The translations under genes were made by a program, and so were the position numbers. Under the pieces are notes generated by a model. The model was not told where the DNA came from, searched no databases, and worked only from the letters and a program-made list of their open reading frames with translations. DNA of 64,000 nucleotides from Alphaproteobacteria bacterium (lineage in GTDB: Bacteria > Pseudomonadota > Alphaproteobacteria > RF32 > CAG-239): NCBI GenBank assembly GCA_017546315.1, contig JAFYXH010000012.1, positions 7,617-71,616 of the forward strand, given 5' to 3'. Of the stretch, positions 34,496-36,567 are shown in pieces; position 1 is the stretch's first letter, and each line of letters starts with the position of its first letter.

Positions 34496-35704
34496 ATGAA
34501 TATTCACGAGTATCAAGCAAAGAGGATTTTTAAGAAATTTGGAGTTAATATACCTGCTGGATTGATTGCTTATACTCCGACAGAAGCTAAAAATGCTGCA
34601 AATAGTATTGCAAGCGAAGGACCTTGGGTGGTTAAGGCGCAAATTCGTGCTGGTTCTCGTGATATGGGAAAATTTTTGGATAAAAGAGCAGGTAAAAGAG
34701 GCGGTATTAGACTTTCTAAAACATTGGATGAAGTTTTTTCTAATGCTGATGACATGCTTGAAAATATGTTAATCACCAATCAAACAGGGGCTAAAGGAAG
34801 ACTTGTTAGCAGAGTTTATGTAGAAGAATATATTAAGACTGTTGCTAAATTTTATGTTGGAATTGCTATAGATAGAGTGAAGGCTTCTGTTGTTGTGGTT
34901 ATTTCTAAAATTGTTGACAAGGGATGTGAGGAATTCGTTGAGTTTATATCTAATGATAAAGACAGTGTTTTTATGCTTGATATTGGAATCGAAAAAGAGA
35001 TTAAGATTGCACAAGCTCAAAAAATTGCTGATTTTATGCAGGTAAAAACAACAGGAAAACAAGTTAAAGATTTTATAAATAAACTTCTTAAGATTTTTTA
35101 TGCAGTGGATGCCACAGAAATCGAAATAAACCCTATTGGACTTACTAAAAATGGTGAGATATGGGCATTAGATGCTGATATTTATTTTGATAAAAACGCT
35201 TTATACAAACATTCTGAAATAAGAGCTCTCACAACGGATGAAGAGATCGAGGAAAGAGAATTGATTGCCTCAAAATTTGGTTTCCAATATAAAGAACTCA
35301 ATAGTGGAGTTGGAATTATTGTAAACGGAGATGGGCTTGCACTTAATACTATAAATGAAGCACAAAATATTGGAATGGATACGGCTTGTTTTTTGAACTT
35401 AAAAGGCGGTGTTGATAGAGATAAAATTGCGGCTGGAATTAAATTGATTATGACAAATCCCAAAGTTGATGGAATTTTCATAAACATTTTAGGTGGTTTT
35501 TTGAGGTGTAATTTGATTGCAGATGGAATTATAACTGTTGCGAATGATTTAGGATTGAACATACCGCTTATTATTAGATTTGAGGGAACAAACAAAGACG
35601 AAGCAACTGAGATTTTAGAAAAATCGGGATTATCTTTCTTGATTGCGGAAGATACTAAGAGTGGACTTTATTTATTAAAAAAAGCAATTGAGGAGGACTT
35701 TTAA
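34496..35704 (+). CDS. succinyl-CoA synthetase beta-subunit-like protein (divergent ATP-grasp)
   Basis: MNIHEYQAK, PWVVKAQ, EIEINP, VNGDGLA, NILGGFLRCNLIADGI, IRFEGTN. The glycine-rich HAGGRGKAGG loop is replaced by RAGSRDMGKFLDKRAGKRGG. Confidence 0.75.
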   Translation: MNIHEYQAKRIFKKFGVNIPAGLIAYTPTEAKNAANSIASEGPWVVKAQIRAGSRDMGKFLDKRAGKRGGIRLSKTLDEVFSNADDMLENMLITNQTGAKGRLVSRVYVEEYIKTVAKFYVGIAIDRVKASVVVVISKIVDKGCEEFVEFISNDKDSVFMLDIGIEKEIKIAQAQKIADFMQVKTTGKQVKDFINKLLKIFYAVDATEIEINPIGLTKNGEIWALDADIYFDKNALYKHSEIRALTTDEEIEERELIASKFGFQYKELNSGVGIIVNGDGLALNTINEAQNIGMDTACFLNLKGGVDRDKIAAGIKLIMTNPKVDGIFINILGGFLRCNLIADGIITVANDLGLNIPLIIRFEGTNKDEATEILEKSGLSFLIAEDTKSGLYLLKKAIEEDF

Positions 35705-36567
35705 TGAGTGTGTTAATTGATAAAAAAACAAAAGTTCTCGTGCAAGGAATTACAGGTACTCAAGCGTCTTTCCATATTCAGAGAGCAATGAAATATGGTA
35801 CTAAGGTTGTGGGGGGGGTTGTTCCGAATAAAACAGATGATACTTATTTGGGTGTTCCATTATTTGAAACTGTTAAAGAGGCAAAAGAAAAAACTAAGGC
35901 TAATGCTTCTATTGTTTTTGTGCCATCCAGGTCTGCAAAAAATGCTATAATTGAAGCGATTGAAGCAGAAATTGAACTAGTTGTGGTTATTACATCTGGA
36001 ATTCCTGTGGCTGATATGATGGAAATTAGAAATAGACTTATTGGGTCTAAAACAACTGTTGTTGGGCCAAACACTCCTGGAATTATTACTCCAGATGAAG
36101 CATATATGGGAATTTTTCCGGATAATATTCATAAAAGAGGAAAGATTGGTATCGTTTCTAGGTCTTCTACACTAACATATGAAGTTGTTTTAGAATTAAA
36201 TAAAATTGGGTTAGGACAGTCTTCTATTATTGGTTTGGGAGATGACTTCATTATTGGAACTAATTTTATTGATATAATAAAAAAATTTAATAAAGACAAA
36301 GAGACTGATTGCATAATATTGATTGCGGGTATTGGCGGAAATTATGAAATTGAAGCAGCAAGAGAATATGCAAAAATTAAGCATGGAAAACCAGTGATTG
36401 CTTTAATGATAAATGACCCAACTCCTTTATCTCGTTTTGATGGAATTGCCTCTGAGATTATTTGCGATTGCATTACGGATACTGAAGAAAAAAGAGATAT
36501 TTTGACAGCTTCTGGAATGATTGTGGTTGATAGCATTGAAGCATTAAAGGAAGAATTATTGAAATAA
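35704..36567 (+). CDS. succinyl-CoA synthetase alpha-subunit-like protein lacking the catalytic histidine
   Basis: Collinear with SucD over its full length (VQGITGTQ, GPNTPGIITP, GIVSRSSTLTYE, GQSS.IGLGDD). However, MGHAGA is DGIASE (His to Ile, codon 36445-36447) and GEIGG is AGIGG. Confidence 0.75.
   Translation: MSVLIDKKTKVLVQGITGTQASFHIQRAMKYGTKVVGGVVPNKTDDTYLGVPLFETVKEAKEKTKANASIVFVPSRSAKNAIIEAIEAEIELVVVITSGIPVADMMEIRNRLIGSKTTVVGPNTPGIITPDEAYMGIFPDNIHKRGKIGIVSRSSTLTYEVVLELNKIGLGQSSIIGLGDDFIIGTNFIDIIKKFNKDKETDCIILIAGIGGNYEIEAAREYAKIKHGKPVIALMINDPTPLSRFDGIASEIICDCITDTEEKRDILTASGMIVVDSIEALKEELLK

Follow-up and report, generated by a model that had tools for sequence, protein, structure and literature searches.

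A SucCD-derived protein pair without the catalytic histidine is maintained beside sufE across an order of gut and rumen Alphaproteobacteria

The window analyzed here is a 64,000-nucleotide stretch of contig JAFYXH010000012.1 (positions 7,617 to 71,616 of the forward strand; assembly GCA_017546315.1) from an alphaproteobacterium of the order RF32. It carries two adjacent genes, here named sucC* and sucD*, that are related to the genes for the beta and alpha chains of the enzyme succinyl-CoA synthetase (SCS; SucCD, EC 6.2.1.5). The SucD* protein lacks the loop histidine that is phosphorylated during catalysis as well as the glutamate that stabilizes the phosphohistidine, and the histidine is missing from every aligned member of the order. 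We are confident that SucC*D* is a maintained protein with a function other than that of SCS. As to the nature of that function, we give a probability of about 0.45 to the reading that the pair is a vertically inherited descendant of an alphaproteobacterial SCS, dead for SCS chemistry, that would still bind coenzyme A (CoA) and a nucleotide as a sensor or regulator.

Results

The sucD* gene (35704..36567, forward strand) is an intact open reading frame (ORF) of 287 codons. Its product has the domain architecture of an SCS alpha subunit, with Pfam CoA_binding (1e-26) and Ligase_CoA (1e-13) domains, and a phmmer search against PDB sequences aligned residues 2–283 collinearly with SCS alpha chains of known structure from human and E. 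coli; the first-pass annotation of the window, using an alignment made by hand, had likewise described the protein as collinear with SucD throughout. The best NCBIfam models are both SucD equivalogs, and the protein scored just under the cut-off of each (NF004230, 327.3 vs. 336; TIGR01019, 326.5 vs. 353.2). The roles of His246-alpha, Glu208-alpha and Glu197-beta in SCS have been summarized (PMC10342173), and for the superfamily a swinging-loop His whose phosphate is gripped by two "power helices" has been described, with two sites approximately 30 Å apart (PMC11494057). In the phmmer alignment to SCS alpha, the His loop of SucD* reads SRFDGIASEII under GRRMGHAGAII, and IAGIGG is aligned to IGEIGG. 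A HMMER alignment together with the DNA placed codon 248 (ATT, 36445..36447, forward strand), which encodes Ile, at the catalytic His246-alpha, and codon 209 (GGT, 36328..36330, forward strand), which encodes Gly, at Glu208-alpha. Both losses had been claimed in the first-pass annotation, as had the substitutions of SRSGTLTYE by SRSSTLTYE and of GIGGDP by GLGDDF, and all of them held. Two further swaps were observed, GPNCPG to GPNTPG and ITEGIP to ITSGIP, the latter not listed previously; Cys123-alpha and the Glu of ITEGIP are gone as a result. The change of SRSG to SRSS puts Ser155 in place of a Gly at the tip of the alpha power helix.

A substitute conserved His near the loop was looked for and rejected. 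The sole His within the C-terminal 100 residues of the window protein, H227, is situated outside the loop and lacks conservation among congeners, and a His at position −4 (GHKMGY) occurs in some genera only. The AlphaFold model of SucD* had a mean confidence score (pLDDT) of 79 and matched E. coli SCS alpha (1JKJ_A, 2SCU_A) in Foldseek at a TM score of 0.82. That of SucC* had a pLDDT of 78, and its best structural matches were SCS beta chains. Low confidence was concentrated in the former His loop of SucD* and in the inserted loop of SucC*. These models are of single chains, so that they confirm the folds and cannot show the remodeled alpha/beta interface. A separate observation on canonical SucD is that PDB entries 9a6e and 9a7l hold an integrative model of a GatB-SucD complex derived from cross-linking mass spectrometry, which hints at SucD protein partners beyond the tricarboxylic acid (TCA) cycle.

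The loss of the His is a trait of the whole order and not a local defect. The order comprises uncultured gut and rumen Alphaproteobacteria with small genomes of 1.3–2 Mb. Exactly one intact SucD* copy was found in 120 of the 121 genomes sampled from it, which covers 18 of 19 genera. A single sucD-like gene and a single sucC-like gene were found in the window genome itself (G000; 65% complete, 0.82 Mb in 14 contigs), and each of the 24 sampled species of the same genus has one copy (64–72% identity) without either the His or the Glu. The first-pass annotation had proposed a search for a second, canonical sucCD; none was found in the window genome, in the genus or in the sampled genomes of the order. 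The only genome without the pair (G057, genus g24, rated 100% complete) gave no match to SufS, SufE, SucC*, SucD* or ComF. We considered a joint loss of sufE and sucCD* in this genome and set it aside as uninformative, since the whole block from sufS to comF is missing and an assembly gap is the simpler explanation.

Of 68 copies that were aligned, roughly 60 came from the order, across 18 genera, and none of these order members has a His in the loop. The motifs SRSSTLTYE, GLGDD[MF] and GPNTPG are common to the order, and the column of Glu208 is occupied by Gln, Arg, Lys, Ala, Gly or Thr. In genera other than that of the window the loop has the near-constant sequence MGYAGDIIT, in which the His has become Tyr. 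The window genus has instead GLAPEIICRGI or GIASEIICD, mostly with Leu or Ile at the His column, and its loop is variable, to the extent that one species (locus L027) has a deletion of 7 aa. In a maximum-likelihood tree the SucD* proteins of the order formed one clade (support 100/99, stem 0.47), within which the window genus formed a clade of its own (support 100/100) on a further long stem of 0.65. Taken together, the alignment and the tree point to two bursts of change, with the His-to-Tyr substitution and the remodeling of the pocket at the base of the order, and the loss of the Tyr later, in the window genus. The nearest canonical sequences in the tree are alphaproteobacterial, which argues for vertical descent of SucC* and SucD*. 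Homologs at large were represented by clusters at 50% identity, 74 of whose representatives cover the His column. The His is present in 64 of these; among the 10 others, three belong to the host order, and one (P0099) keeps a His that had been misplaced by pairwise alignment. Loss of the His is not a chance event.

The partner gene, sucC* (34496..35704, forward strand), encodes a beta subunit of 402 aa that aligned over its full length with E. coli SucC and scored 333 against an NCBIfam cut-off of 370. Its start is most likely the ATG at 34496, which begins the conserved sequence MNIHEYQAK 2 nt past the sufE stop; the mechanical ORF call had begun at TTG 34490. Across the order Lys47, Glu110, Glu210, Asn212 and Asp226 are kept, of which Lys47, Glu210, Asn212 and Asp226 correspond to the nucleotide and Mg residues Lys46, Glu197, Asn199 and Asp213 of E. 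coli. The beta power-helix tip has changed from NGAG to NGDG, so that Asp279 stands at E. coli Ala266. FLN[LV]KGGV (FLNLKGGV in the window) replaces FLDVGGGA, putting Asn301 and Lys303 at Asp288 and Gly290, and NILGGFLRCN is found in place of NIFGGIMRCD. No stretch of the pair is better conserved than the C-terminal domain of SucC* (entropy 0.2–0.5), the part that makes up site I together with alpha. SucC* has been remodeled in step with SucD*.

SucC* also has an order-wide extension of a glycine-rich loop by 10 residues (residues 57–66, MGKFLDKRAG; 34664..34693, forward strand), which is predicted to be disordered (pLDDT <50). A companion note to the first-pass annotation had called this loop "replaced"; it is a longer loop of the mitochondrial type plus three residues, as indicated by a gap of 10 aa against bacterial SucC and of only 3 aa against human SUCLG2. 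We therefore rejected the insertion as a novel feature, and since the human loop is similar, the insertion alone is no proof of inactivation. The loss of the loop glycines may be of more importance. The consensus of the loop, R-x-x-G-K/Y/H-F-L-E/D-K-x-A-G-K-K-G-G-I, resembles that of the mitochondrial beta subunit (GGRGKGVF..NSGLKGGV in human SUCLG2) and is unlike the loop of the sampled canonical relatives among Alphaproteobacteria, which is short; shared ancestry and convergence are both possible.

The first-pass annotation had also suggested that dN/dS, the ratio of nonsynonymous to synonymous substitution rates, be determined across orthologs. Among close congeneric pairs with dS <0.6 the ratio was 0.03–0.11 for sucD* and 0.01–0.05 for sucC*. 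For the window branch, the comparison was with the closest public relative (L082; 83% identity), at a dS of about 1 that is near saturation. It gave 0.07 for sucD* and 0.11 for sucC*, next to 0.10 for sufS, 0.09 for sufE, 0.08 for each of lpxD and tolC, and 0.17 for comF. Purifying selection on the pair is as strong as that on the neighboring housekeeping genes. Congeneric copies of SucD* vary least in the N-terminal CoA-binding domain and in the SRSSTLTYE-GLGDD region, and most in the C-terminal third, where the former His loop lies. For the pair as a whole, conservation peaks at the CoA-binding domain, the alpha/beta interface at site I and the ligand residues of the ATP-grasp domain, and is lowest in the former His loop. 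The replacements in the pocket, namely Thr124, Ser155 and Asp180 of alpha and Asp279, Asn301 and Lys303 of beta, are invariant or nearly so across the order. Judged by its sequence, the pair has the hallmarks of a pseudoenzyme or exapted enzyme homolog: clear homology to an active enzyme, loss of essential catalytic residues, and purifying selection. The label "pseudo-enzyme" used in the first-pass annotation nevertheless calls for a caveat, as the conserved new polar residues of the pocket leave room for a new activity.

The metabolic setting was searched in three congeners rated 100% complete, in a genome from another family of the order (G025, 79% complete) and in the window genome, which is itself incomplete; statements of absence rest on the complete congeners. 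Neither the E1 component of 2-oxoglutarate dehydrogenase (sucA), SdhA/FrdA nor citrate synthase (gltA) was found in these five genomes, and the same was true of DapD, methylmalonyl-CoA mutase, both CoA-transferase families and KorA-type 2-oxoacid oxidoreductase. Pta was present in G025 and in the three complete congeners and was not found in the incomplete G000, and the relatives have an ORF that, at about 1180 aa, matches pyruvate:ferredoxin oxidoreductase (PFOR) in size. This combination of absences and presences indicates fermenters in which acetyl-CoA is the main thioester. The lineage lacks a TCA cycle, as well as any known enzyme for the production or consumption of succinyl-CoA.

Both genes belong to a transcription unit that is opened by sufS (32407–33624), followed by a sufT/DUF59 gene (33638–34075) and sufE (34086..34493), all on the forward strand. 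The SufE protein (135 aa) has the cysteine motif GCQSQVW, and PF02657 was detected on the L082 ortholog; its gene ends directly before sucC*. Downstream, a comF-family gene (36567..37292, forward strand) encodes a double zinc ribbon and a phosphoribosyltransferase domain, and its start overlaps the sucD* stop. TAATG overlaps flank sucD* at 35702–35706 and 36565–36569, in agreement with the coupling on both sides described earlier. The limits of the unit are set by a terminator-like hairpin after fabZ (32358..32389, forward strand) and by a strong, bidirectional one after comF (37294..37315); between these two no hairpin of comparable quality was found. In a survey of 17 loci from the window genus and 13 others, the gap between sucC* and sucD* was −1 to +2 nt, usually −1. 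It was −38 to +15 nt between sufE and sucC* (16 loci, the window genus and 12 others), and −8 to +9 nt between sucD* and comF (16 loci). The sufE-sucC*-sucD*-comF core persists through rearrangements that have displaced sufS and sufT. Canonical relatives have the order mdh-sucC-sucD-sucA-sucB-lpdA, in contrast to the host order, in which sufS-sufT-sufE precede the pair and comF follows it.

Further His-less SucD lineages (P0057/P0091, P0089, P0067 and P0134) were found elsewhere in the tree or among the representatives. Like SucC*D*, those of P0057, P0091, P0067 and P0134 have lost the His independently and have kept an adjacent SucC-like partner; they differ in that they fall into separate clades of the tree and lie in other neighborhoods, without suf genes. 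Some of the changes recur among these lineages, namely GIGGDP to GIGDDP, GEIGG to GGPGG and His to Tyr. The homologs of P0067, P0091 and P0134 have Tyr or Asn at the His position, and a His-to-Tyr change has occurred in at least three lineages. A metagenome contig from the P0057 cluster (L072, 2392–4400) encodes an independent His-less SucD with GIGDDP and IGGPGG next to an altered SucC, in which ELNS stands for EINP and NGIG for NGAG. No suf genes accompany this pair, whose neighbors encode an ACP-like protein, an FMN dehydrogenase and a polyprenyl synthase.

Discussion

The pair is closest to SucCD (E. coli 1SCU, 2SCU and 1JKJ; human 6G4Q and 7MSR), with which it is collinear at an identity of about 46% for alpha and 30–34% for beta. 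It shares with SucCD the domain architecture, the predicted fold, adjacent genes with overlapping stop and start codons, the Lys, Glu, Asn and Asp of the ATP-grasp domain, and the Rossmann CoA motifs. Unlike SucCD, it has neither His246-alpha, Glu208-alpha, the Glu of ITEGIP nor Cys123; both power helices have altered tips, and a Lys stands at beta Gly290. It also falls under the NCBIfam cut-offs and stands in a suf/comF operon rather than in mdh-sucCD-sucAB, in genomes that lack a TCA cycle. Its scores to the other ligases of the SCS superfamily were far under those to SucCD. MtkAB (malate-CoA ligase), citryl-CoA synthetase, ATP-citrate lyase, ADP-forming acetyl-CoA synthetase (ACD) and 4-hydroxybutyryl-CoA synthetase contain CoA-binding, CoA-ligase and ATP-grasp modules as the pair does; they differ from it in that all of them use a swinging-loop phosphohistidine (PMC11494057). 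Literature searches on SCS pseudoenzymes, on the genomics of the host gut group and on cyanobacterial sucCD genes returned nothing relevant.

Since the SCS reaction needs the loop His and SucD* has none, SucC* and SucD* are taken to be dead for SCS chemistry. The earlier preference for a maintained non-SCS protein over a decaying pseudogene is well supported by the presence of the gene in 120 of 121 genomes, by the dN/dS values, and by the lack of both a TCA cycle and a second sucCD. That the genes are a functionless relic in the course of being lost might be suggested by the variability of the C-terminal third of SucD*, former His loop included, within the genus and by the long stem of 0.65. 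All copies examined, however, are intact, in 120 of 121 small genomes, and their dN/dS of 0.03–0.11 is that of essential neighbors, so that the selection data effectively refute this explanation. It is equally hard to believe in a still working SCS that would use another residue or a direct transfer. In its favor are the retained fold, pairing of subunits and ATP-grasp residues, and the database name of succinate–CoA ligase. Against it, the loop and its surroundings offer no conserved nucleophile, His or other; Glu208, the Glu of ITEGIP and the phosphate-binding helix tips have all changed; succinyl-CoA is neither made nor used by any enzyme known in these genomes; and both subunits score under the equivalog cut-offs. 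An acyl-phosphate:CoA role like that of Pta was also considered and rejected as unneeded, as the relatives have a normal Pta.

The closest precedent for a His-less member of this fold with a function is the regulatory domain of PatZ, in which L245 replaces the catalytic H254 of ACD1; with acetyl-CoA and ATP as its ligands, this domain exerts allosteric control over the acetyltransferase to which it is fused (PMC12184503). The ACD-like domain of PatZ/Pat belongs to the same NDP-forming acyl-CoA synthetase superfamily as the pair, and its loop His has become Leu, as most congeners of the window genome have Leu or Ile; the features shared are the loss of the His and the retention of the CoA-binding and ATP-grasp domains. 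PatZ differs in being a single chain of the ACD branch fused to a GNAT catalytic domain, whereas the pair is a free two-subunit derivative of SucCD. No fused effector was found in SucC* or SucD* among their Pfam domains, and the sequence match of PatZ to SucD* was weak (9isq/9it0, E = 5e-4).

Because the CoA- and nucleotide-binding motifs are the best conserved, SucC*D* probably still binds those ligands. It would most likely bind CoA or an acyl-CoA, of which acetyl-CoA is the obvious one in fermenters that use PFOR and Pta, and a nucleotide at the ATP-grasp domain of beta, without coupling to the CoA site. By analogy with PatZ, the pair would then act as a ligand-sensing or regulatory module. 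We regard this mechanism as tentative and hold it with rather less assurance than the general reading. A product of the same operon would be its partner; SufE and the sulfur relay formed by SufS and SufE come first among the candidates, and ComF is another. This choice of partner is a tentative one. A hitherto unrecognized place for SucC*D* in sulfur mobilization or Fe-S assembly is a doubtful proposition at this stage, and two versions of it can be envisaged. In one, the sensing of CoA or acetyl-CoA and ATP would gate the SufS-SufE relay according to the energy and carbon state of the cell; in the other, the pair would be an enzyme whose rebuilt pocket puts SufE-borne sulfur to use in a reaction that depends on CoA or ATP.

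Several points weigh against a sensor or regulator. Binding of CoA and ATP is predicted from the retention of motifs. The new conserved polar residues (Thr124, Ser155 and Asp180 of alpha; Asp279, Lys303 and Asn301 of beta) would fit a new catalytic site equally well. In the other genera the MGYAGD motif is strictly kept, which suggests that the loop has a role there; the window genus has lost the motif. Adjacency in small genomes that rearrange slowly is weak evidence of a functional link. Finally, at one locus (L071, 1494–2759; G117, genus g34) the gene directly upstream of sucC* is not sufE but a flavodiiron-type gene. The latter encodes a metallo-beta-lactamase and a flavodoxin domain, and a rubrerythrin gene lies nearby.

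Some of these points are shared by a different explanation, in which SucC*D* is a neo-functionalized enzyme whose remodeled site I, or ATP-grasp site with an extended basic loop, would carry out a reaction of CoA or ATP that is free of phosphohistidine. Because the pair is coupled to sufE, and tightly so at the level of translation, a sulfur-related activity is conceivable. This explanation draws on the near-invariance across the order of the pocket replacements (Thr124, Ser155 and Asp180-Asp181 of alpha; Asp279 and Lys303 of beta), on the conservation of the site-I domain of SucC* (entropy 0.2–0.5) above all other stretches, and on the retention of the Mg and nucleotide residues of the ATP-grasp domain. 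We consider it unlikely, though worth serious attention, as neither a substrate nor a chemistry suggests itself, the two sites of the superfamily are approximately 30 Å apart with no carrier between them here (PMC11494057), and the only nucleophile-like replacement, the Tyr, has been lost in the window genus, whose loop varies down to the 7-aa deletion of L027. The loss of the Tyr and the variability of the loop argue that the common function of the family needs no nucleophile on the loop. Less probable again is a structural or moonlighting scaffold, independent of ligands and inherited from a non-catalytic function of the ancestral SCS. Non-catalytic roles of SCS subunits have been reported elsewhere, such as that of SUCLA2 in stress-granule assembly (PMC10266061), and other SucCD lineages without the His, in differing gene contexts, have independent origins; yet the ligand-binding motifs are the best conserved parts of the pair, which would be unexpected if ligands were irrelevant.

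Public records name SucD* "succinate--CoA ligase subunit alpha", and metabolic reconstructions built on such names would credit a common group of gut and rumen Alphaproteobacteria with a step of the TCA cycle and with substrate-level phosphorylation, almost certainly wrongly. The pair is a clear-cut natural case in which an enzyme complex of essential appearance has outlived its own pathway, with both active sites rebuilt in step and the genes moved beside those for sulfur mobilization. That the Tyr replacing the His is also gone in the window genus limits what the common function can be. As a putative sensor or regulator, SucC*D* adds a free-standing two-subunit counterpart to the regulatory domain of PatZ. 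The repeated, independent origin of His-less SucCD pairs points to a general and so far unstudied second life for this fold. On the same doubtful footing as the place in sulfur mobilization, the existence of several such lineages would make dead SucCD pairs a module from which sensors have been built repeatedly.

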